From Fidelibacterota bacterium (GTDB lineage Bacteria > Fidelibacterota > Marinisomatia > Marinisomatales > JABMOV01), in contig JBHHUC010000032.1 in assembly GCA_046861395.1 (NCBI GenBank), positions 1 through 22,942 of the forward strand: a DNA stretch of 22,942 nt. Reading direction: 5' to 3'. The stretch's first letter is position 1. Each line of letters opens with the position of its first letter. Below the pieces are notes generated by a model. It ran no database searches. It was not told the DNA's origin and was given only the letters and a program-made list of their open reading frames with translations. The translations under genes and the position numbers were made by a program. This document shows positions 3,013 to 20,033 of the stretch, piece after piece.

Positions 3013-5001
3013 ATGTCAAAGATCATCACGCTTACCATTCTTTCCCTTACGCTGCTCAGCGCGGAAAATCTTTCCCTGACCTACCGTGGTACGTTGAGCA
3101 ATCATGAATTGCTGGACGTCTATATTGACGGAAACTGGGCCTATGTTCCGGCCGGATTGGGCGGACTGAATATTGTCGATTTATCGGCACCAGGCAATCC
3201 CGAAGTCATTGGACAATATGACGCCGATGGCTGTGCCTGGGGCCGTCTCTATGCCTGGGCTACCCGGGGGACCTATGCCTATGGTACCGGCCGTGATTGC
3301 GGTATTCATATTGTCTCCGTATCACCGGAAGGCATTCCCACTTTCATGAACACCTACATTGATCAGTCGCGTGCCAGTGTACGTTATGAACATCCCGAAA
3401 CATCCAATGATCTCCTATTTGCTTCCCGACATCAGGACGGCGTGGAAATTCTTTCTCTCAGCGATCCAATTCATCCCTACCAGTTATCCGTCATCCCTAC
3501 GGGAAATGCCTGGGCCACCCTGGCCAGCGATTCCATCCTCTATATCGCCGACGGTGGTTACGGCATTGCAGTTGTCGATATCACCGACCCGGAAACACCC
3601 ATCATATTGTCCACTATGGAGACATCGGGAACGGCCAAGGATCTGGCGCTGGTAAATCAATCCTTATTTGTCGCCGTTGGTGCCTACGGTGTGGATATGA
3701 TCAACGTACAAAACCCGGCAACTCCAGAATTCATAGCCAATTACAATACAACCGGATACGCCTCCCGTGTCGCAGCCAATGACAGTCTGGTGGCTGTTTC
3801 CGATTGGGACGATGTGGAAGTTTTACGCCACGGAACATTCGGTTTGGCTCTGGCCGGTTATAAAAATACCGGCGGCCGCGTCATGGCAATTAATATGATT
3901 GGCGATCACATCATTTCTGCCGAATGGAATTTATTCTCTGTTTTCCGTTTTGAAAATCAAACCGGTGCAGATATGGATTTATCCGTACACAAACTATCCT
4001 TTCCCCGAACCGCCAGTCCGAGCACGTCCACTCTCCCCCTTCAGATGACCAATTCAGGCAATTCGGTATTGTCGATTGCCGGCTATCAAATCAGTAATTC
4101 GGACTTTAGTATTACCATCCCTCAATTATCGCTGAACCCGGGACAAAGTCAGGAAATTGCCGTGCATTATACGCCTCAGGGCGGTACCTGGTACGGAACG
4201 CTGACCTTTCACACCAACGATCCCGATGAAGAGACGGTGGATGTCCGCGTTACGGGTAATTTTCCCTATGGTCCCATGGTGGGAGATCCGGCTCCGGGAT
4301 TTTCTCTACCTCTGGTTAATGGAAACGGGTATATGGGGTTGGAGGATTTAGCCGGGCAGCCTGCTGTGATTGCCTTTTTTACAGGGTGGTGACCCGTGTG
4401 TGCTCCGGAGTTTTCGGATTTGGAAATATCAATTTGGCAGGAATATCAGGCGCAAGGTTTGCAGGTCATCGGCATTTCGAATGAGCCATTAACCGTAATT
4501 GAAAATTTTATCGAGGATCAGGGCGTGACTTTTCCCGTCCTGCGAGATAATCAAAATGTTTACAGCGCCTATAATATTCCCGGTGGTCCATCTCCCTATC
4601 CCCGTGATTTTATCATCGATGCCGACGGTGTTGTTCATCTGGCGAAAACCGAATATGATCCCGGAGAAATGATCAATGTTATTGAAACTTTGCTGGGGAA
4701 TACCGCTGCCAGTGAAGACAATGATGTTCTGCCCCAATCGTTTTCACTTTCGGTCTATCCCAATCCCTTTAACTTTGCCACCACCTTTCACGTTACTGTA
4801 GCCAGTTCCGGTTATATGACTCTCACAATCATGGACCTCCTTGGGAAGGTGGTGGCAATACCGTTTACCGGGAATCTTCCCGCCGGATCAAACCGGGTGG
4901 AGTGGAACACACGAAACCGGGGGTTGTCTTCCGGTGTTTACTTTGCAGTGCTTGAATCGGATCAGGCTATATGGTCAATAAAGTTTATCCTACTAAAATA
5001 A
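3013..5001 (+). CDS. Secreted multidomain selenoprotein: signal peptide, LVIVD repeats, Ig-like (ASH/choice-of-anchor D) domain, AhpC/TSA-TlpA redoxin with UxxC, T9SS-type C-terminal sorting domain (662 aa, Sec460)
   Basis: ORFs 3013-4392 and 4396-5001 share a frame and are separated by one TGA (4390-4392). Read-through gives VIAFFTGW-U-PVC-APE, the W-C-x-x-C active site of a redoxin whose N-part (VGDPAPGFSL) and C-part (VIGIS...FPVLRD...YPRDFIID) flank the TGA. A SECIS-like hairpin follows, and the protein ends in a VYPNPFN...SSGVYF...K domain. Confidence 0.9.
4404..4418 (+). other. Bacterial SECIS-like hairpin TCCGGA-GTT-TTCGGA
   Basis: 6-bp stem (one G-U pair) with a loop beginning GU. 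It starts after an 11-nt spacer following the in-frame TGA, which matches the known bacterial SECIS geometry. Confidence 0.75.
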
Positions 5002-5044: not shown

Positions 5045-5923
5045 TTATTGCGGCATCCAGGTCAGATTCAGGGCAAGATTACTTTGCCGCATGTCCAATC
5101 CAGGAATGCCGGTGATGAGAGGTCCACGCAAGGTCAGGGTAAACACCATTTCATCATGGCGATAATCCAATCCGGCCGAACCGAACAGATACCACCCCTT
5201 TACCGAGGGGCGGTAATCGCGGCGAAACGATAATTGCAGGGAGGGAAATATCCGCTGCCGAACAAATCTCTGGTCACGCTGATAGATGGAAACCTGCATT
5301 ATGGTTTCATTGAAACGATAGGCGCTGCGCGATACAGGGACATCCAGAAGCCACTGCATTCCAAGAATATATTTGGTTTCCTGAAAACGCCAGCCGTCCA
5401 GTGCTATCCGATGCAGGGCCCTTCCATCGGTAGCCAGTCCGCTTGATTCAGTTTCCGGTGCCACCCGGGACTTCTCAGGTAGAATTACACCGTTTGTCAG
5501 GTGAAAATTTCCTCGTTTCCAGGCTGGAATCATGCTGCGGAGAAGAATAGCCACTTCACCGGCTTTCCAACGATTGTCTGCTCCTCGGGTCCAGGGAACT
5601 GCCAACGTCAGTTCGGCCGCCGGATGGGGACGCATCGTCATCGACAGGGACAGGATTTCCCGGAAATCGCGACGATTGACGGAAATAAAATTGATTTTCT
5701 TGGTATGGACGCGGACCTGATTATAGGTGACCGATAAAAAGAAATTTTGCTCCCCCGGAAGGATGGTTTGGCCGGAAATTGTCAGAGGTTGAAACGATCC
5801 GGTGTTGGCTGTAGTGGATAATTGATTCCCTCCCACGGAAGGTGGTGGTGTCATTCAAGCCGTGCACTGTGCCTGCAACCAACTCGAAGAAATCAGGATC
5901 AATCCGCATATTACCCGGATCAT
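5045..5923 (-). CDS. Putative exported / outer-membrane beta-barrel selenoprotein with N-terminal CxxU (292 aa, Sec23)
   Basis: The ATG at 5923 overlaps the nnrE stop (ATGA) and encodes a signal peptide MIRVICGLILISSSWLQA-QCTA. An in-frame TGA (5857-5855) then leads into the 269-aa ORF starting 5854. A SECIS-like hairpin follows. Downstream sequence has amphipathic beta strands and an aromatic residue near the C-terminus. Confidence 0.8.
5828..5842 (-). other. Bacterial SECIS-like hairpin CCTTCC-GTG-GGAGGG
   Basis: 6-bp stem (one U-G pair) with a loop beginning GU, 12 nt after the in-frame TGA. Same size and geometry as the 4404-4418 element. Confidence 0.7.
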
Positions 5924-6657
5924 GGCAATCTCAGGATTGGCCCTGGAGCAAAAAGACTTGGGCAGGAATGTCCGATGGCGGTTAAAATATCATCGGGGAC
6001 ACCAATATCAGCCAGAAAAAGTTGACCCGTCTTTACCCGGGCAGGCGGCGTAAGTAAACCTTTTTTGGGCAGGGCCAATGTCAGTGTGGCCTGGGCCGAA
6101 ATTACGTTTCCGGTTATGGCTCCTGCTGTGGTATCCAAACCAGTGGGAGCATCCAGGGCCAGGATAAATGCCGGCCTTCCCGACTTGACCCGGGGCAGAT
6201 ATTTGGCAACCGATCCCCGCACCGGTCCCTGCAGACCGTATCCGATCACGGCGTCCAATAAAAAGGATCGGGACAAAACATCTTCTTCAGGCAGTGACGG
6301 GAGACAGGTGACATTTTTCATTCGGCGCAGGGTCTGCCAACGTTCGGCGGGAACCGGTTTCAACCGGGCTGAATCTCCGATTAGATATGCCGAAACAAGA
6401 TAGCCACGATTTGCCAGATGACGCGCGGCGGTCATACCACCGCCGCCGTTATTGCCTGTCCCGGCACAGACGCAAATCGGTACAGTCTTATCATCAATGA
6501 GGATTTCGGTCAAATCCGCCAGGTTGCGTCCGGCCAGCTCCATCATCTGGGATAGACGAATACCGTACTCCTCCATCATTAAACGGTCGACTTCAACCAT
6601 TTCGGCGGTGGTAATGGCCGGGACTGGATTCCTACAAATAGGAAAAGAATATTTCAT
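5920..6657 (-). CDS. nnrE: Stand-alone NAD(P)H-hydrate epimerase (YjeF N-terminal domain)
   Basis: Motifs MMELAG, GTGNNGGGG, DAVIGYG, LALDAPTG, TLTLALPK and LADIGVP. Confidence 0.9.
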   Translation of the reverse strand: MKYSFPICRNPVPAITTAEMVEVDRLMMEEYGIRLSQMMELAGRNLADLTEILIDDKTVPICVCAGTGNNGGGGMTAARHLANRGYLVSAYLIGDSARLKPVPAERWQTLRRMKNVTCLPSLPEEDVLSRSFLLDAVIGYGLQGPVRGSVAKYLPRVKSGRPAFILALDAPTGLDTTAGAITGNVISAQATLTLALPKKGLLTPPARVKTGQLFLADIGVPDDILTAIGHSCPSLFAPGPILRLP

Positions 6658-7596: not shown

Positions 7597-8511
7597 TCAG
7601 GGAAAGCGAATCGCTGTCCCCACCGAGATTCTCAGTCGTGGTTCGCTGCCCGGTGGGATATTACCGGAACTGGACTGAGTATAGACTGGAATCTTGATTG
7701 CCACACCGCCATCCCGGAATTGATTCCGTTTAAATAACAGGTTTATCTTTGCGTATATCGTGGTAATCCAACGGTCTCCTGACGGAATATCTAGGAAGGT
7801 ATCCGGTGTTTTTAAATGCCGAATATCCAGAGCAAGACCCGGTTTTATATACACCATACGGTTCAGATCGTACCTGCCCCCCAGTTCGGCACTCAGTGAT
7901 TCATCATAAACAACATCTCTCACCTCCCTGACATTCTGCTGCCAGGCCAATGCCAACGATAGTTGATGCAGTCCGGTGAAGCGGGTTATCCCGACCGGAA
8001 GTAAGATGGATCGGTTCACAGCCAGTGCTACCATGGCAGTACTCGGTGTTTTGAACGGAAATCCCTGACGGGAATAGTGACGGTGCTCTGTTGCTTTGTA
8101 TTGTATTTCGACTATCATACCATTGAACCAATGCCGGTAGCCCAACCGCAAACCGCTGGCAGTGATGTCGGTTGACCATTGTTCAAAGGAAATTCTTTCC
8201 TCGATTTGGGTACGGTTTACGCCGGCTTGAACAAAGAACACGGAAGTGGGACGGAAAGAGCGGGACCATTCCAGAAATAGATTTCCGGTTGTTCCGTACC
8301 GTATCGAGCTCCCTCCGTTTCCCGTCTGATCACCCTGGATTCCCACCATAATCTGATCCTTGTGGGCTAGCCCTAGGGGTGAAGGACGATGCCACAGGGA
8401 TGTTAGGGTCGCATTTCCTGTCCCACTAGTCGTTGATCCGTTTAAGGAACAACATAGTTGTGCCGTTCCCATCTGCAGGAATAGCGGAAATAATACCAGC
8501 GCACGAATCAT
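7597..8511 (-). CDS. Putative outer-membrane beta-barrel ('transporter'-like) protein with N-terminal Cys pair
   Basis: Signal peptide MIRALVLFPLFLQMGTA-QLCC, amphipathic strands, and C-terminal ...IRFP. ATGA overlap with the upstream gene. Confidence 0.65.
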   Translation of the reverse strand: MIRALVLFPLFLQMGTAQLCCSLNGSTTSGTGNATLTSLWHRPSPLGLAHKDQIMVGIQGDQTGNGGSSIRYGTTGNLFLEWSRSFRPTSVFFVQAGVNRTQIEERISFEQWSTDITASGLRLGYRHWFNGMIVEIQYKATEHRHYSRQGFPFKTPSTAMVALAVNRSILLPVGITRFTGLHQLSLALAWQQNVREVRDVVYDESLSAELGGRYDLNRMVYIKPGLALDIRHLKTPDTFLDIPSGDRWITTIYAKINLLFKRNQFRDGGVAIKIPVYTQSSSGNIPPGSEPRLRISVGTAIRFP

Positions 8512-9542
8512 GGGTTAAGCCGGATATCAGGATAAAAGGCCGCCGCGGCAAACCAGTAGGCAATAAAGGCATCAGCGGCGATAAGGTTTTCCCCACCATT
8601 GTGACTGACTCCCAGGGCATCCCAGGACAATTCTGAATTCCTCTCCTTCAGGCGGATTGTGCCGGCGATTGTATCCCATTGATCGATCAATAAATCACGG
8701 GTGGTCTGGAATGCGATGGCCAGATTATCTGCCGCGGATATGATTATACGATAGCTCACACCGCCGATTTCTTTTTCCACCAGGGTGGGCATGACAGAAT
8801 TCCTGATGGGAAAAGCCCATTGTTCTGTTTCAGTTGCAATCGTTAATACCCGTTCTTTGGCCGGAAGGCGGTCATCGAAATGAATCAGGGAAAAATAAAT
8901 GTAGTCTCCGCAAGAAGCTGAGTTACAGGTTTTATAATTCCCATAGGGATAAGAACCGTAATTGCGACTGTATCCGGTTTCCGTGGTGAGAACTTTTGAA
9001 TCGGGATACAATTTGCGCCAAGTTGCCCAGGTGGTTTCCAGCAGTGGTTTTAATTCCAGGGTCCTGCCACGTTTCGTCCCGGCCGCCGAAGCCAGGAGTA
9101 ATTGGGGCCAATAGCTTTCAGTACCGCGATCATACATGATCAGGTTGCTGTTATACAACATTCCCGAAACACCGAATTCTCCTTCTGTAACGGCATGAAG
9201 GGCCGATCCGGTTAGGGGGCAGTAGGAAATCATGTAGCCGGACTCATTTACCACTTCATGCCAATCCAGGATCGGGTGGGGATAGGCCACATATTCACTG
9301 CCGTTATACATCCCCACCACCAGATCACTCTCCTGCAGATAGGTATGAGCGGGGTCCGTAGTGATAGCATAGTGGGGATTGTCGATACTGGGAATACAAT
9401 CACGGCCGGCGTAACATCCCTGTTGCACGAATTCTGTATCAATGTCCCATTGTTCCTGATTCAGATTTCCTCCCAGAATATTGTCCTCCTGACAGGATAT
9501 CAGGACCAGCAACAGAATCAAAACCGAACGCTGCATAGGCAT
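8508..9542 (-). CDS. DUF3179 family lipoprotein
   Basis: Lipobox LLVLIS-C, plus family motifs DCIPSIDNP, AYPHPILDWHEVVN, SYCPLTGS, FGVSGMLYNSNLIMYDRGTESYWPQ and YWFA...FYP. Confidence 0.85.
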   Translation of the reverse strand: MPMQRSVLILLLVLISCQEDNILGGNLNQEQWDIDTEFVQQGCYAGRDCIPSIDNPHYAITTDPAHTYLQESDLVVGMYNGSEYVAYPHPILDWHEVVNESGYMISYCPLTGSALHAVTEGEFGVSGMLYNSNLIMYDRGTESYWPQLLLASAAGTKRGRTLELKPLLETTWATWRKLYPDSKVLTTETGYSRNYGSYPYGNYKTCNSASCGDYIYFSLIHFDDRLPAKERVLTIATETEQWAFPIRNSVMPTLVEKEIGGVSYRIIISAADNLAIAFQTTRDLLIDQWDTIAGTIRLKERNSELSWDALGVSHNGGENLIAADAFIAYWFAAAAFYPDIRLNP

Positions 9543-15819: not shown

Positions 15820-16872
15820 TCAGCAACATGCCCCCAGGGATTTTTCTTTGTCAGCATTGGAGAGACTATCACCGCAATCAAAGGGACCGTAATGTATGTC
15901 AAAGTTTCCTTTGACATCAAAATAATTCCGGTACCGGGTTTCACTGAGCATCTTGGCTGTATTGCCGCATACCAGTACAGGTTTCCCCGTCGGAAATCGG
16001 TGATGATCGTCCAGCTTGAATTCATGCGGATTTTCGTGGAGCGTTCCTTTATAATAGGCCACGTGACCATAATCTTCACAGAGGTCTTCCAGGTCCAGTT
16101 TGAAAGCCCGGATCGTCATGGAATAGAATTGGATCATACCGGCCTTGGCAAAGACTTCCTCATCCTCCAAGGCAATATTGGATGTGGACACGATACGATA
16201 ATCCAGACAGTTCTGCCGCCGGAGCATGCGTCGGAAATCTTCAATATACATGGCGCCACCAAGACATTCCCCCAGGAGAACATCGTCTTGCCGTAAGTCT
16301 GCCGGAATGCGACGATCGGAGAAGACATCACTGAAGAACAATTCGCCCCCCGGTTTCAGTACCCTGAATATTTCCCTGAATACCGCTTCCTTCTCGGGAG
16401 ACAGGTTGATTACGCAATTGGAAATCACCACATCAATGGATTCATCCTCCATATCGATCGATTGCAGATCTTCGATGTAACCGTGTTTGAATTCCACATT
16501 AGGGAAAGGATAATGAAATTTAGTCATGTGAAAATCAATATGCCGTCGGGCTACGTCCAATTGCTCTTCGGTCATGTCAACTCCGATTACCTTCCCCATG
16601 GGTCCAACCATCTGAGACAATAGATAACAGTCCCGGCCGGTTCCGCAACCCAGATCCAAAACCGTTTTCCCTTCCAGAGCAATGGGTATCGGTGAACCGC
16701 AGCCATAAAACTTATCCAGAATCTCAGGATGAATATTTTTCAGATATGCCTTGATGTAGGGTGGCATATCATCGGGAATACAGCAGGCACTGGTTTTAAG
16801 GTCATGTTTCGTACTTAGCACCTCACTGTAATAGTTTTTAACACTGACTTTTACTTTATCATTCGGGGTCAT
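15820..16872 (-). CDS. arsM: Arsenite S-adenosylmethionine methyltransferase (ArsM/AS3MT-like)
   Basis: LKTSACC, FYGCGSP, VLDLGCGTGRD, VISNCVINL, GECLGGA, VCGNTA and C-terminal CC. GGAGGA RBS. Confidence 0.88.
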   Translation of the reverse strand: MTPNDKVKVSVKNYYSEVLSTKHDLKTSACCIPDDMPPYIKAYLKNIHPEILDKFYGCGSPIPIALEGKTVLDLGCGTGRDCYLLSQMVGPMGKVIGVDMTEEQLDVARRHIDFHMTKFHYPFPNVEFKHGYIEDLQSIDMEDESIDVVISNCVINLSPEKEAVFREIFRVLKPGGELFFSDVFSDRRIPADLRQDDVLLGECLGGAMYIEDFRRMLRRQNCLDYRIVSTSNIALEDEEVFAKAGMIQFYSMTIRAFKLDLEDLCEDYGHVAYYKGTLHENPHEFKLDDHHRFPTGKPVLVCGNTAKMLSETRYRNYFDVKGNFDIHYGPFDCGDSLSNADKEKSLGACC

Positions 16873-16881
16873 GGTTCCTCC

Positions 16882-17898
16882 TCAAACTTGTAGATCGGTC
16901 GCTAGGGGTTCAAAAGTTTGTTGCTGTTTAATTTGTTTATCCAACACACCGGTGCAAGAGCTTCCGGCCCCGGCCGTACAGCCGAAACAATGGTCCTCAA
17001 ATACAATGGGCTGGTGTATCATGTCCGAAAAGGTATCTATATCCCAAACGGAACGGGCTGAATGACCTGCTGGCAATTCCAGCATCTGATTGAAATCACA
17101 ATCATATAAATACCCGTCCCAACTGATGGATACCAGATCACGGCACATGATACCATCCGCTGCTATGGGATTGAAATTTGACCGGAGCAGTTCCATATAT
17201 TCTTCCAGTCGGTTCTCTCGCTCCAGATAACGGGCAAAGCGATGTATGGGCATATTGGTAATGGTAAACAACGTGTTGAATGTAATGCCGAAATCCTGCT
17301 GCAATATTCGTTTATAATCCCGTTCCAACTGATGTTGGGCCGGTGGCAATGATGGTCCTATGGGATTATAAACCAAGTCCAGTTGCAAACCGGAATTGGG
17401 TTTTCCGTATCCCAGCGAATTCAGCTTCAACAATGCTTCAATACTTTTCCCGAAAACACCTTTCCCCCGTTGCTTTTCCACATTTTCCCGGGAATAACAT
17501 GGCAGGGAACTCACAATCTGAACCTGGTGTTCGGCCATGAATTCCGCCGTATCCTCCTGTCCTGCTTCATACAGTACGGTGAGATTGCAACGGTCAATCA
17601 CCTGAAGCCCCTGCTTTACAGCGGTGCTGACCAACGTGCGGAAAGAAGGATTCAATTCTGGTGCCCCACCGGTCAGATCCACGGTTTCCAGCGACGGTGA
17701 TTGCGTCATGAGTGTAATGATCCGGTTCACGGTCTTTTCGTCCATATTCTCCGTTCGGTTCGGACCGGCATCCACGTGACAGTGCAGACATGCCTGGTTG
17801 CAAAGTTTTCCCAGATTGATCTGGAGAGTCGTGACTGCTTTGCGTTTCAGGTTCAGGTGATAATGGTTTATGGTTTCTTGAAATGATGTTTTTTTCAT
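16882..17898 (-). CDS. arsS: Arsenosugar biosynthesis radical SAM protein ArsS (TIGR04167-type, Cys-rich C-terminus)
   Basis: TLQINLGKLCNQACLHCHVDAGP (CxxxCxxC), DLTGGAPELN, SLPCY, TITNMPI, YDCDFNQML and HCFGCTAGAGSSC motifs. Confidence 0.92.
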   Translation of the reverse strand: MKKTSFQETINHYHLNLKRKAVTTLQINLGKLCNQACLHCHVDAGPNRTENMDEKTVNRIITLMTQSPSLETVDLTGGAPELNPSFRTLVSTAVKQGLQVIDRCNLTVLYEAGQEDTAEFMAEHQVQIVSSLPCYSRENVEKQRGKGVFGKSIEALLKLNSLGYGKPNSGLQLDLVYNPIGPSLPPAQHQLERDYKRILQQDFGITFNTLFTITNMPIHRFARYLERENRLEEYMELLRSNFNPIAADGIMCRDLVSISWDGYLYDCDFNQMLELPAGHSARSVWDIDTFSDMIHQPIVFEDHCFGCTAGAGSSCTGVLDKQIKQQQTFEPLATDLQV

Positions 17899-20033
17899 GA
17901 ACGTCTCCAGGAATGAAATTTATCCAGCCACTTGAGAGCTCCGGAGGGAGCGTGGGCTTTTTTCCAGTTACCGGCGGCAAACTTCGTGGCTTCACTCAGG
18001 GTTGGGTAAGTGTGAATCGTACCCAGGATTTTATTGAGTCCAAGACCGTATTTCATCGCCAGTACATATTCGGCCATGATTTCTCCGGCATGGGGCCCCA
18101 CTATGGTAGTGCCCAAGATTTTATCTTTGTTGGGAACGGTCAGGACCTTTACAAATCCGCGGTTTTCACCGTCGGCAATGGCACGGTCCAGCCCGGCAAA
18201 ATCATATGTGGTCACTTCATAGGGAATATCTTCCCGTTGCGCATCTTTCTCATTCAATCCCACGCGAGCCACTTCCGGATCGGTAAAGGTGGTCCAGGGA
18301 ATGATGCGATAATCGGCTTTGAACTTTTTCAGGGGGCTGAACAGAGCGTTAATGCTCACATACCAGGCCTGATGGGAAGCAAAATGTGTGAACTGGTATG
18401 GTCCGGTAACATCACCGCAAGCATAGATATTGGGATAATTTGTACGCAGAAATGGATCCACATCGATGGTCCCGTTGGGTCGCAATTCTACTCCCAGTTC
18501 TTCCAGTCCGAATCCAGTCACATTGGCCCGGCGTCCCAATGCAAGCAGAATTTCATCACAGTGAATACGGATTTCCTTTCCTTCATGTTCGCATACGACG
18601 ATTTTTTCATCGCCGTCCCGTTCGAATCGTTTGACCATGTGTCCTGTTTTTACGGTGACACCTTCCTGTTCGAACGTTTCCCGGATGAATGCACTCACAT
18701 CGTCATCTTCCCGGTTCAGAATGCCGTCATAACCTTCCACCTGAGTCACGGCACTGCCGAAACGGGCGAAAGCCTGCGTCATTTCACTGCCGATAGGACC
18801 GCCCCCCACTACCACCAGCCGTTTGGGCAGGGTACGAATATCCCAGATGGTATCGCTGGTCAACGGACTGACTTCTTCCAAGCCAGGAATAGGTGGTGCC
18901 AACGGCCGGCTGCCGGTAGCAATCACGATGTTCCTGGTTGTCAATGTATTGCCGTTCACTTCTACCGTGAAAGGATCAATGATTCGGGCTTCCCCGATCA
19001 TGGCGTCCACTCCTAAACTTTGATAGCGTTCTACGGAATCATGAGGTTCAATGTATTTAATGACACTCTGCACCCGTTCCATGACATGGGCAAAGTCGAA
19101 ATCGACGGTCGTGGAACGAAATCCCCAATCGGTAGCCCGGTGGGCATGATGGAGCATCTTGGCGGAGCGCAGCAATGTTTTACTGGGAACACAACCCGTA
19201 TTTAGGCAGTCACCACCCATTTTCGTTTTTTCGATCACGGCAACCTTGGCTTTGAGAACAGCGGCAATATATGCGGCTACCAATCCACCGGATCCGGCCC
19301 CGATCACAATGATATTGTAATCAAAGTGTCGTGGTTTTTTCGTATTTTTATAGATTTTCCTGGCCCTTACAACTGCTACGATACTCTTTGCAATCCATGG
19401 GAATAGTCCCAACAGGGCAAAGGATAAGAGAACGTCCGGGGATATTATGCCGGAGGCCGATTCCAGTTGGGCCAGTTGTGTTCCCGCATTCACGTAAACG
19501 GCTGTTCCGGCCAGCATTCCCAATTGACTGACCCCGTAGAAGGTCCGTGCCGGTATGGGTGTAAGTCCGAATATCAGATTTATCATAAAGAAGGGGAAAA
19601 TGGGGATTAGACGCAATGTAAATAAATAGAAACCGCCATCCTTTTTAATCCCTTCATTAATGACCTGAAGTTTCTTACCGAAGCGGGACTGGACCGGTTC
19701 ACGAAACAGATACCGGGCGACCAGAAATGCCAGTGTTGCGCCAATGGAACTGGCAAAGGAAATCAGGATTACAGCTGGGAAAAAGCCGAAAATGGCGCCG
19801 CCGGCCAGAGTCAGAATGACGGCTCCGGGAAGGGAAATGGCTGTAGCAAAAACGTAAAGGGCAAAATACCCGGCCATCATGGTAAACTGATGCTCCTGGT
19901 AATAGGCCTGGATTTGTGTCTGTTGCCGTTTTAATTCGGTAAAATTTAAATACTGTCCAATATCAAAATATTGATATACAGCCACGGCACCAAAGAATAG
20001 GGCCATAAATGTTAACACTTTTTTTATGTTCAT
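17895..20033 (-). CDS. TVP38/TMEM64 (DedA/SNARE-associated) membrane domain fused to a class-I pyridine nucleotide-disulfide oxidoreductase
   Basis: N-terminal SLPGA.ILTLAGGAIFG and LRLIPIFPF. C-terminal GAGSGG, GGDCLNTGCVPSK, GGGPIG.E, TFTDPEVA and HTYPTLSE. No MerA C-terminal CC. Confidence 0.9.
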   Translation of the reverse strand: MNIKKVLTFMALFFGAVAVYQYFDIGQYLNFTELKRQQTQIQAYYQEHQFTMMAGYFALYVFATAISLPGAVILTLAGGAIFGFFPAVILISFASSIGATLAFLVARYLFREPVQSRFGKKLQVINEGIKKDGGFYLFTLRLIPIFPFFMINLIFGLTPIPARTFYGVSQLGMLAGTAVYVNAGTQLAQLESASGIISPDVLLSFALLGLFPWIAKSIVAVVRARKIYKNTKKPRHFDYNIIVIGAGSGGLVAAYIAAVLKAKVAVIEKTKMGGDCLNTGCVPSKTLLRSAKMLHHAHRATDWGFRSTTVDFDFAHVMERVQSVIKYIEPHDSVERYQSLGVDAMIGEARIIDPFTVEVNGNTLTTRNIVIATGSRPLAPPIPGLEEVSPLTSDTIWDIRTLPKRLVVVGGGPIGSEMTQAFARFGSAVTQVEGYDGILNREDDDVSAFIRETFEQEGVTVKTGHMVKRFERDGDEKIVVCEHEGKEIRIHCDEILLALGRRANVTGFGLEELGVELRPNGTIDVDPFLRTNYPNIYACGDVTGPYQFTHFASHQAWYVSINALFSPLKKFKADYRIIPWTTFTDPEVARVGLNEKDAQREDIPYEVTTYDFAGLDRAIADGENRGFVKVLTVPNKDKILGTTIVGPHAGEIMAEYVLAMKYGLGLNKILGTIHTYPTLSEATKFAAGNWKKAHAPSGALKWLDKFHSWRRS

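Follow-up and report, generated by a model that had tools for sequence, protein, structure and literature searches.

Does a TGA codon located in frame near the start of a gene specify selenocysteine (Sec; U in the motifs given here), and if so, which function could the Sec residue serve? The gene that raises this question is encoded on the minus strand of contig JBHHUC010000032.1 of assembly GCA_046861395.1 (2.37 Mb in 136 contigs; completeness, 94%) from a Fidelibacterota bacterium. We analyzed a stretch of 22,942 nucleotides (nt) of this contig, which is referred to as the window; G000 is the label of the window's own genome, and G002, G003, G005, G020, G022, G048, G281, etc. are labels for other genomes of the phylum. 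We conclude that the in-frame TGA is very probably read as Sec and that the gene very probably encodes a genuine selenoprotein, with the insertion of selenium itself predicted from sequence data.

Gene callers report only an open reading frame (ORF) of 269 amino acids, which extends from the ATG at 5854 to 5045. The initial annotation had pointed out that this ORF lacks a leader, and the sequence bears this out: an in-frame ATG (5923-5921) is located 69 nt upstream from the ATG at 5854 and overlaps the stop codon of the upstream gene for a YjeF_N protein in the sequence ATGA. Translation of 5923-5048 with TGA as U yields 292 residues, which begin with MIRVICGLILISSSWLQA, continue directly with QCTAU-MTPPPSVGGN, and end with the protein body (see the table). 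All of the previously noticed elements, i.e., a signal peptide, a CxxU motif, and a GU-loop hairpin 12 nt past the TGA, are present in this sequence. The ATGA overlap suggests translational coupling of the YjeF_N and selenoprotein genes. The ATGA overlap with the YjeF_N stop codon is also found in G002 and G003; in G022, the start codon overlaps the stop codon of an upstream paralogue, and in G048, it is located 3 nt past a paralogue stop codon. The TGA is the same in contigs of two sequencing runs, which match the window apart from a T>G change at 5300; these runs probably represent the source sample and do not count as independent support. The runs listed for this stretch comprise four DNA runs of a single study, which probably include the source, and no RNA run.

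The strongest evidence for Sec comes from homologues. A six-frame search of 61 related genomes gave matches in 8, and of the 6 full-length non-self matches, 5 contain exactly one TGA and 1 contains none. In the phylum, 401 genomes were searched with a profile, and 36 gave matches, with full-length orthologues in 8; 7 of these have one TGA, and 1 (G048) has Cys instead. The TGA is found at the same alignment column in seven genomes from five genera, with the signal peptide upstream and the barrel body downstream. This column follows Q-C-x-x and is filled by either U or C: seven orthologues have Q-C-x-x-U, i.e., the window (AQCTAU-MTPPPSVGG), G002 (PQCSTU-LTPQPSVGG), G003 (GQCSTU-IPPPPSVGG), G022 (SQCALU-NAPPPPVGG), G005 and G020 (both AQCALU-NAPPPPVGG), and G281 (SQCSLU-SSPPPPVGG), and two have Q-C-x-x-C, i.e., G048 (SQCAMC-NSPPPPAGG) and the metagenome protein P0008, which is full-length with AQCPLC and lacks the PPPxVGG stretch. 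The CxxC/CxxU motif that the initial annotation proposed to look for directly after the signal peptide is therefore the one that homologues have. When 1.84 billion representatives were searched exhaustively with HMMER, only eight proteins were retrieved, most of which start after the TGA, and a word-index protein search with the read-through protein returned the window's own truncated form as the sole match. A metagenome scan with the single protein gave seven weak matches (∼31% identity over 73 residues; E, 2e-4), which we did not take as relatives.

The same comparison bears on the alternative that the TGA is a true stop codon, that the upstream 22 codons are a chance or leader ORF with translation starting at the ATG at 5854, or that the gene is a nonsense pseudogene. 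Three observations speak for a stop and against Sec: in the window genome, an ATG directly follows the TGA; public gene calls all begin past the TGA; and the downstream hairpin is not significant on a single sequence. However, the residue after U in the orthologues is Leu, Ile, Asn, or Ser; because the orthologues do not have a start codon at this position, the Met at 5854 is incidental. The Cys forms G048 and P0008 read straight through, which also answers the concern of the initial annotation that homologues might lack Cys at the TGA position, and the spread over five genera argues against the strain-specific TGA that it had allowed for. Moreover, at an overall identity of 24-36%, the orthologues have kept the signal peptide together with the Q-C-x-x motif and the TGA column, and export would be impossible for a barrel that lacks a signal peptide. 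Finally, the genome holds the complete Sec machinery: tRNA-Sec scores 67.5 bits against a cutoff of 47 (called by ARAGORN as tRNA-SeC, anticodon TCA), and selA (525.7 bits), selB (302.6 bits; split by a contig end), and selD (397.8 bits) are all above their curated cutoffs. Altogether, these data make a stop codon or a pseudogene highly improbable. In passing, we note that selD (G000:C70:19789-20718, L018) contains one in-frame TGA, i.e., the selenophosphate synthetase is itself a selenoprotein in this genome.

The weaker matches of the 401-genome profile search represent a paralogous family of ∼290 residues. Read upstream through TGA, these proteins have a signal peptide followed by Q-U-P-L-U-SNPTLPVGS. 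Among 26 paralogue matches examined, 25 have the motif, with TGA at both positions in 22 and TGC followed by TGA in 3; the remaining one, in G202, is disrupted. The paralogue in the window's own genome, on contig C73, reads MSVLKRSVFLLFLSLVLWGQ-U-PL-U-SNPSLPVGS and has a hairpin, CUCCC-GGUC-GGGAG, 12 nt past the second TGA. Scanning one genome per species with a DNA pattern that combines motif and hairpin gave 82 stretches; of 83 distinct translations, 82 have a signal peptide, Q-[U/C]-x-x-U, four residues, and then [LPS]-[PS]-V-G; the other match (L123; Acidimicrobiia; QWARU) is spurious. By record title, the matches are from Candidatus Neomarinimicrobiota/Marinimicrobia/Fidelibacterota, Myxococcota, "Deltaproteobacteria," other Proteobacteria, and a Cognaticolwellia. 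In the 82 family members, the residue at −1 relative to the Gln is Gly (40), Ala (35), Ser (5), Thr (1), or Pro (1), and that at −3 is Ala (46), Leu (35), or Thr (1). Because these residues fit a signal peptidase I site, the Sec/Cys pair would occupy residues 2 and 5 of the mature proteins. Public copies of the paralogues comprise 259-271 residues, start past the TGAs, have no Pfam domain, and are named "hypothetical protein."

The candidate new family of the initial annotation is thus not an isolated one: the window gene represents a CxxU branch that arose from a UxxU barrel family of much larger size. We determined a maximum-likelihood tree with 40 rows, i.e., 32 family members (set A3), 4 PF13557 proteins, and 4 Myxococcota proteins, of which none was dropped; it is midpoint rooted and has long outgroup branches. 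In this tree, the window subfamily forms a long-stemmed clade (support, 100/100; stem length, 1.29) that is sister to the Marinimicrobia two-Sec clade (97/95), and the two Cys forms are placed in different sub-clades. The window protein is a fast-evolving CxxU sister of the Q-U-x-x-U family. Two further Q-U-x-x-U types were seen outside the phylum among the pattern matches (L072-L151). The Myxococcota type (...NPNLPVGGSAxD) aligns full-length to the barrel profile. In a type of ∼250 residues (...DSSLPVGRSEYDAP) from Proteobacteria and Myxococcota, only the N-terminal motif aligns, and the body may have another fold.

Is the hairpin downstream of the TGA a selenocysteine insertion sequence (SECIS)? 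In the window, it begins 12 nt after the TGA (5854-5843 lie in between), its apical loop is located 18 nt from the UGA, and it encodes P-S-V-G-G. According to the legend of Fig. 2 in PMC13188914, the bacterial SECIS (bSECIS) model has an apical loop of 3-9 nt with G in its first two positions, an upper stem of 4-16 bp, a UGA-to-loop distance of 16-37 nt, and a minimum free energy (MFE) of ≤ −7.5 kcal/mol. Compared with this legend, the window hairpin fits in loop size, stem length, loop start, G(U/G), and spacing; its free energy of −7.4 kcal/mol is 0.1 short of the limit, and that of the G002 hairpin is −10.1. Considered alone, the window hairpin is at the level of chance (z = −0.03; 98 of 200 shuffles fold equally well or better), and the 71-nt fold of the window prefers another structure.

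The comparison to relatives, i.e., the TGA column, the ATGA overlap, and pairing and covariation, lifts the hairpin above chance. For alignment A2, we took 75 nt around the Sec codon from each of 33 genes in the Sec form, of which 7 are orthologues and 26 are paralogues; here, RNAalifold predicts a single helix of 5 bp that closes a GGUC loop and starts 12 nt past the UGA. In a 6-pair version, 92.7% of the hairpin cells are paired compared with 43-59% after sliding of the partner strand by 1-3 columns. Covariation scores 0.371 versus 0.238 ± 0.023 in shuffles, and none of 500 shuffles reaches 0.371; because the 33 genes are related by descent, these shuffle tests are inflated. Substitutions are seen at pair 33-42 (UA 15, CG 11, UG 3, other 3), pair 32-43 (UA 26, CG 6), and pair 30-45 (AU 8, GC 7, GU 5, UA 1, other 11). 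At pair 33-42, the variable bases are the third positions of Leu (CUC/CUU) and Gly (GGG/GGA) codons, so that the compensation is at synonymous sites. The covariation check proposed by the initial annotation therefore came out in favor of a conserved and covarying hairpin. The relatives have a stem of 5-6 bp with a GGUC loop, to which the distance is 17 nt from the last UGA and 26 nt from the first. A register shifted by one base, CC(U/C)UCC-GUG-GGAGGG, is seen in the window, G002, and G003. The Cys form of G048 has an Ala codon (GCG) in place of the Val codon; it has lost the GU loop, and its RNA folds differently. Moreover, the pattern of TGA, 12 nt, and hairpin is found only at the two family genes in the window's whole genome. 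An Rfam search of the window gave no match. In addition to the energy, the shuffling results, and the shared descent, two observations argue for caution: the conserved peptide partly dictates the hairpin stem, and one of the four canonical PF13557 proteins compared has an I-P-V-G-like stretch near the N terminus without Sec. We conclude that the PP[SP]VGG codons double as a probable SECIS element, a point on which the initial annotation is corrected.

What is the fold of the protein that carries the pair? The initial annotation had proposed a barrel rather than a thioredoxin fold, and this proposal receives support from remote homology. We compared the window subfamily (A1), the two-Sec family (A5), and four bona fide PF13557 proteins from related genomes, two of which are nearly identical (A4). 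Using hhalign, A1 aligns to A5 with a probability of 99.8% (E, 8.5e-29; 276 columns), A5 aligns to A4 with 97.4% (E, 1.1e-11; 283 columns), and the 32-member set A3 aligns to A4 with 97.15%. Directly compared, A1 and the four sequences of A4 reach only 12% (E, 0.0024; 203 columns), and the barrel assignment of the window protein is therefore transitive. In a lenient Pfam scan of the 32 A3 members, PF13557 (Phenol_MetA_deg) was found weakly in 8 (best E, 6.7e-5) and OMP_b-brl in 3; in an NCBIfam scan of the same members, the only recurrent match was FilC (7 of 32; best E, 5.6e-5). Several results besides the low direct score weigh against the assignment: the window protein has no Pfam family at E ≤ 0.01 and none at E ≤ 10, staying below the PF13557 gathering score; PDB sequence and profile searches gave no match; and a crude scan for hydrophobic alternation gave ∼7 strand-like segments, on which we do not rely. 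The paralogue in the same genome matches neither Pfam nor NCBIfam. No thioredoxin-type Pfam or NCBIfam match was found in the window protein around the motif, which is located at mature residues 2-5. Taken together, these comparisons argue that the window protein is likely a COG4313-type outer-membrane barrel.

PF13557 corresponds to COG4313 according to PMC9581022. In PMC4493636, the only COG4313 structure, that of Pput2725 of Pseudomonas putida F1, is a 12-stranded barrel in which the N-terminal ∼14 residues enter the lumen from the periplasmic side. In the paralogues described here, the stretch from the Gln to the Gly-Ser of LPVGS, which bears both Sec residues, also comprises 14 residues. 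By analogy, the Cys/Sec pair of the window protein may be positioned in the lumen as part of an N-terminal plug. The family resembles the COG4313/PF13557 channels (Pput2725, TcpY, and SphA) in length (∼270-300 residues), signal peptide, full-length profile similarity by way of the two-Sec paralogues, a C-terminal P-x-W...EGSQL...R-F/W signature that is shared by eye, and a short N-terminal segment before the first strand, which fills the lumen in Pput2725 (PMC4493636). It differs in that known members have no described Sec or Cys pair and have hydrophobic organics as proposed substrates (PMC4493636); in that the window protein misses the Pfam model and scores poorly against PF13557 members; and in that the genes of known members occur in the context of aromatic catabolism, while those described here occur in the context of metal handling.

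For the two-Sec family, this context is of the mer type. On contig C73 of the window's own genome (L071 7186-12576, minus strand), MerR, MerT-HMA, MerA, thioredoxin, DsbD_TM, and the Q-U-P-L-U barrel are encoded on one strand. The MerT-HMA fusion has the motifs ...ASICCVGP... and GMTCASC; MerA (TIGR02053; 550.9 bits versus a cutoff of 454.45) has an N-terminal GMTCDSC and a C-terminal CC pair; the thioredoxin is small, with CxxC and no evident signal peptide; and the barrel gene is located 104 nt past the DsbD_TM gene. Located between merA and the barrel gene, the genes for thioredoxin and the DsbD-like protein suggest a dedicated reducing path to the periplasm. In G252, G057, and G073, the order is MerT(-HMA), zf_CopZ, (ArsR), and barrel. 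In the pattern scan, MerT, MerA, ArsR, or zf_CopZ was found within 1.2 kb at 23 of 33 Marinimicrobia-type two-Sec loci and, using the same queries, at none of 42 Myxococcota/Proteobacteria-type loci. Among 24 Myxococcota-type "LPVGG" loci, 17 have a thioredoxin-like WCAPC stretch, either fused or adjacent, and one Cognaticolwellia locus is located beside MerC (E, 2e-13). A tblastn search of a plasmid collection gave no match.

The window type itself is found in MerT/ArsR clusters in five of eight genomes (G005, G020, G022, G048, and G281), and it follows a two-Sec barrel in the first four of these. In G048, the order is YjeF_N, MerA (543 bits), MerT-HMA, ArsR, two-Sec barrel, and the Cys form of the window type, followed by DUF3179, a "QACC" protein, and an LVIVD-redoxin; the islands in G022 and G005 are similar. 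In G281 (L080), the window type directly follows MerTP, zf_CopZ, and ArsR, and in G020 (L151), ArsR is followed by the pair of two-Sec barrel and window type. A YjeF_N-only protein (also at L059-L063) heads the metal/selenoprotein islands in G005, G022, and G048, and in the window, G002, and G003, its gene is translationally coupled to the barrel gene.

Based on these data and on family analogy, we marginally favor a model in which the window protein is an exported Sec channel with a metal-capturing Cys/Sec pair. According to this model, translation would start at the ATG that overlaps the YjeF_N stop codon; SelB and tRNA-Sec would decode UGA-23 as Sec, guided by the minimal SECIS hairpin 12 nt downstream, which would be built from the Pro-Ser/Pro-Val-Gly-Gly codons; signal peptidase I would cut before Gln19 to give the mature N terminus Q-C-T-A-U; and the remaining ∼260 residues would form a 12-stranded COG4313/PF13557-type outer-membrane barrel. 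By analogy to the N-terminal segment of Pput2725, the Cys/Sec pair would sit inside the channel lumen as a thiophilic site, capture a soft metal, most likely Hg(II), that crosses the outer membrane, and hand it to periplasmic or inner-membrane carriers of the MerP/MerT type, while a relay of thioredoxin and a DsbD-like protein would maintain the reduced state of the pair in the oxidizing periplasm. That the gate is for a soft metal of the mercury type has a slight edge over the other possibilities, with metal binding and the identity of the metal deduced from gene context and family analogy. The soft-metal-capturing channel that the initial annotation had proposed thus agrees with the mer-operon context, and capture as such stays conjectural.

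Several observations do not sit easily with a mercury gate. The 22.9-kb window contains no mer genes, and in the window, G002, and G003, the gene follows YjeF_N and lies beside YjeF_N and SDR genes with no mer genes adjacent. A flavoprotein encoded in the window (17895-20033) scores 392 bits on the MerA model, below the cutoff of 454, and other neighbors are redox/arsenic genes (redoxin, AhpC/TSA, ArsS, and an ArsM-like protein). The ArsR/SmtB and CopZ-type neighbors of the relatives do not specify mercury as the metal. Also, HEDxHHR, a His-rich motif of the mer-linked paralogues, is absent from the window subfamily, and known COG4313 substrates are hydrophobic molecules and not metal ions (PMC4493636).

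Alternatively, the Cys-Sec pair may be a redox-active selenylsulfide rather than a metal site, and it may gate the channel or reduce or capture a chalcogen or metalloid substrate passing the outer membrane, i.e., selenite, polysulfide, arsenite, organo-arsenic, or thiol-reactive compounds of hydrophobic character. As seen in Table 1 of PMC13188914, CxxU is a classic motif of redox proteins, and the window encodes a W-U-P-V-C Sec redoxin, AhpC/TSA, a thioredoxin-reductase-like flavoprotein, DoxX, ArsS (448.9 bits), and the ArsM-like protein. The lack of the His-rich motifs, the absence of adjacent mer genes in G000, G002, and G003, and the hydrophobic substrates of COG4313 channels (PMC4493636) point the same way, and thioredoxin and DsbD partners would be equally expected for a redox cycle. 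However, five of eight genomes have the gene in the same orientation as, and at a short distance from, MerT, HMA, or ArsR genes or a mer-linked paralogue; the sister family closes a true merR-merTP-merA operon in the window's own genome; and no known oxidoreductase fold was found using Pfam and NCBIfam. We therefore regard a redox function as rather unlikely overall, and a redox or metalloid role for the CxxU copy as a serious rival to metal capture.

Another possibility is that the selenylsulfide (a diselenide in the paralogues) takes no part in ligand chemistry and is a staple for the N-terminal segment of an otherwise ordinary COG4313 channel for hydrophobics. The N-terminal segment occludes the lumen in Pput2725 (PMC4493636), Cys-Cys suffices in two orthologues, and these two sit in different parts of the clade. 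In contrast, a staple would be a costly reason for several phyla to retain one or two Sec codons along with a SECIS element (82 of 83 pattern matches), the dedicated thioredoxin/DsbD-type partners point to a reduced pair, and a staple leaves the metal-gene context unexplained, making this function improbable.

How does the metal-capturing channel that we favor relate to known systems? In the mer relay, Hg(II) is handed over between paired thiolates. The barrels resemble the MerP/MerT/MerC relay in having a chalcogen ligand pair spaced by x-x, as in MerP GMTCxxC (GMTCASC in MerTP and GMTCDSC in MerA of the window's own genome), in being encoded in or beside mer operons, and in the proposed transfer of Hg(II) between paired thiolates. 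They differ in that the relay proteins have an HMA ferredoxin-like fold or inner-membrane helices, while a predicted outer-membrane beta-barrel carries the pair here, and in that the barrel proteins use Sec. To our knowledge, the canonical mer system has no outer-membrane component, and we know of no explanation in the classical mer model for how thiophilic metals cross the outer membrane.

Sec pairs in carriers of the mercury or copper type are represented by NF041115 (UxxU metal-binding) and NF045683 (MerT/CopZ fusion-like), listed in PMC13188914, and these share with the two-Sec barrels two UGAs three codons apart that are served by one downstream element. These proteins are soluble HMA domains or inner-membrane proteins, and the two models match none of the 32 barrel members at E ≤ 1; MerTP of the window's own genome matches both, each below cutoff. 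Among catalogued Sec barrels (PMC13188914), NF049945 (TonB receptor FCYXU, which has CxxU) and NF041027 (GSU2204; MtrB/PioB) are also outer-membrane beta-barrels; they belong to other families, i.e., 22-strand TonB receptors and MtrB/PioB, and in the barrels described here, Sec is located within mature residues 2-5. Neither of these two models, nor any other NCBIfam model named in Table 1 of the same review, matches any of the 32 members at E ≤ 1, and the window protein has no NCBIfam match. Table 1 of this 2026 review (PMC13188914) comprises 119 prokaryotic selenoprotein families, including the TonB-dependent receptor FCYXU, an MtrB/PioB-type barrel, MerT, a UxxU HMA protein, DUF3179, and DUF1573; within this table, there is no COG4313-type barrel and no Q-U-x-x-U N terminus. 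In searches of the full-text literature and in passages of the Global Ocean Sampling (GOS) paper and of a 2022 review, we found no description of the family; supplements of the cited papers might list candidates. As far as tested, the proposal of an undescribed selenoprotein class is upheld: the family is absent from Table 1, and neither Pfam nor NCBIfam has a model for it. Sec decoding and the barrel superfamily are known; what is not catalogued is the way in which the two are combined, where the Sec pair is positioned, and that the genes are linked to mer.

Positions of the features discussed, given in window coordinates
Feature	Position	Strand	Remarks
Predicted selenoprotein precursor, full coding sequence	5045..5923	minus	292 residues plus stop codon 5047-5045; orthologues align from signal peptide to C terminus
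ATGA overlap	5920..5923	minus	Start codon 5923-5921 shares bases with YjeF_N stop codon 5922-5920
Signal peptide, residues 1-18 (MIRVICGLILISSSWLQA)	5870..5923	minus	By inspection; predicted signal peptidase I cut before Gln19
Mature N terminus Q19-C20-T21-A22-U23 (CxxU)	5855..5869	minus	Putative Sec codon TGA at 5857-5855
SECIS-like hairpin, CCUUCC (5842-5837), GUG (5836-5834), GGAGGG (5833-5828)	5828..5842	minus	6 bp; −7.4 kcal/mol
Protein body, ∼260 residues, ending ...LALNLTWMPQ	5048..5827	minus	Predicted COG4313/PF13557-type outer-membrane beta-barrel
YjeF_N (NAD(P)H-hydrate epimerase-like) gene	5920..6657	minus	PF03853, 1.1e-32; TIGR00197, 104 bits (cutoff, 88.6)
Convergent neighbor, second selenoprotein (apparent)	3013..5001	plus	Two ORFs joined by TGA 4390-4392; 662 residues

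Other genes of the window are also of interest with respect to Sec and metals. The convergent neighbor encodes a protein with LVIVD repeats, an immunoglobulin-like/DUF1573-like domain, a redoxin with ...FFTGW-U-PVC-APEF, and a type IX secretion system (T9SS) sorting tail; the W-U-P-V-C junction recurs in G005 and G048 in the corresponding conserved island. Apparently, this protein is a Sec redoxin destined for the cell surface. A gene at 7597-8511 (minus strand) encodes 304 residues, in which a signal peptide precedes A-Q-L-C-C-S; the protein matches neither Pfam nor NCBIfam, and its gene overlaps the end of a DUF3179 gene (8508-9542, minus strand). DUF3179 and an ∼320-residue protein starting ...GQACC form the same pair in the G005 and G048 islands. 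We considered the 7597-8511 protein as a paralogue of the Sec barrels and rejected it; it is unrelated to them by BLASTP and hhalign and also unrelated to PF13557 by hhalign. The region 15820-20033 (minus strand) encodes an ArsM-like methyltransferase (below cutoffs), followed by ArsS, an arsenosugar radical SAM (seleno)protein (TIGR04167; cutoff, 300 bits), and, beside it, a 712-residue fusion of a DedA/VTT membrane domain and a pyridine nucleotide-disulfide oxidoreductase (17895-20033). The ArsM-like ORF ends with ...SLGACC-TGA (15820-15822, minus strand), and its frame continues into the next gene; most likely, this TGA is an ordinary stop codon after a Cys pair, the alternative being a C-terminal CCU.

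Among selenoproteins, the family would be unusual in being an outer-membrane channel and not a soluble redox enzyme, and in having Sec at the tip of the mature chain; moreover, one small hairpin in conserved codons would serve one or two UGA codons. The family also reveals a systematic annotation error, in which the public copies seen are cut at the TGA, have lost the signal peptide, and are called "hypothetical." Natural Sec and Cys forms allow a direct comparison of the pair for metal capture.

We speculate, as a tentative and rather doubtful extension of the channel model, that mercury enters through the outer membrane by way of the Q-[U/C]-x-x-U barrels, which would be lined with selenium and dedicated to this task. 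The selenolate pair, carried on the N-terminal plug of a COG4313 channel, would take Hg(II) away from its environmental ligands and pass it on to MerP/MerT, thioredoxin and DsbD would keep the pair reduced, and the window CxxU copy would be a second gate with another specificity. If so, the CxxU copy could be open to, e.g., mercury in hydrophobic or organic form or a different soft metal. Through their linkage to mer genes, the barrels are a candidate for the step in which thiophilic metals cross the outer membrane. The phylum is implicated in marine mercury cycling, and the barrels, if they function in this way, would provide a testable route for the entry of mercury into the cells of this phylum.

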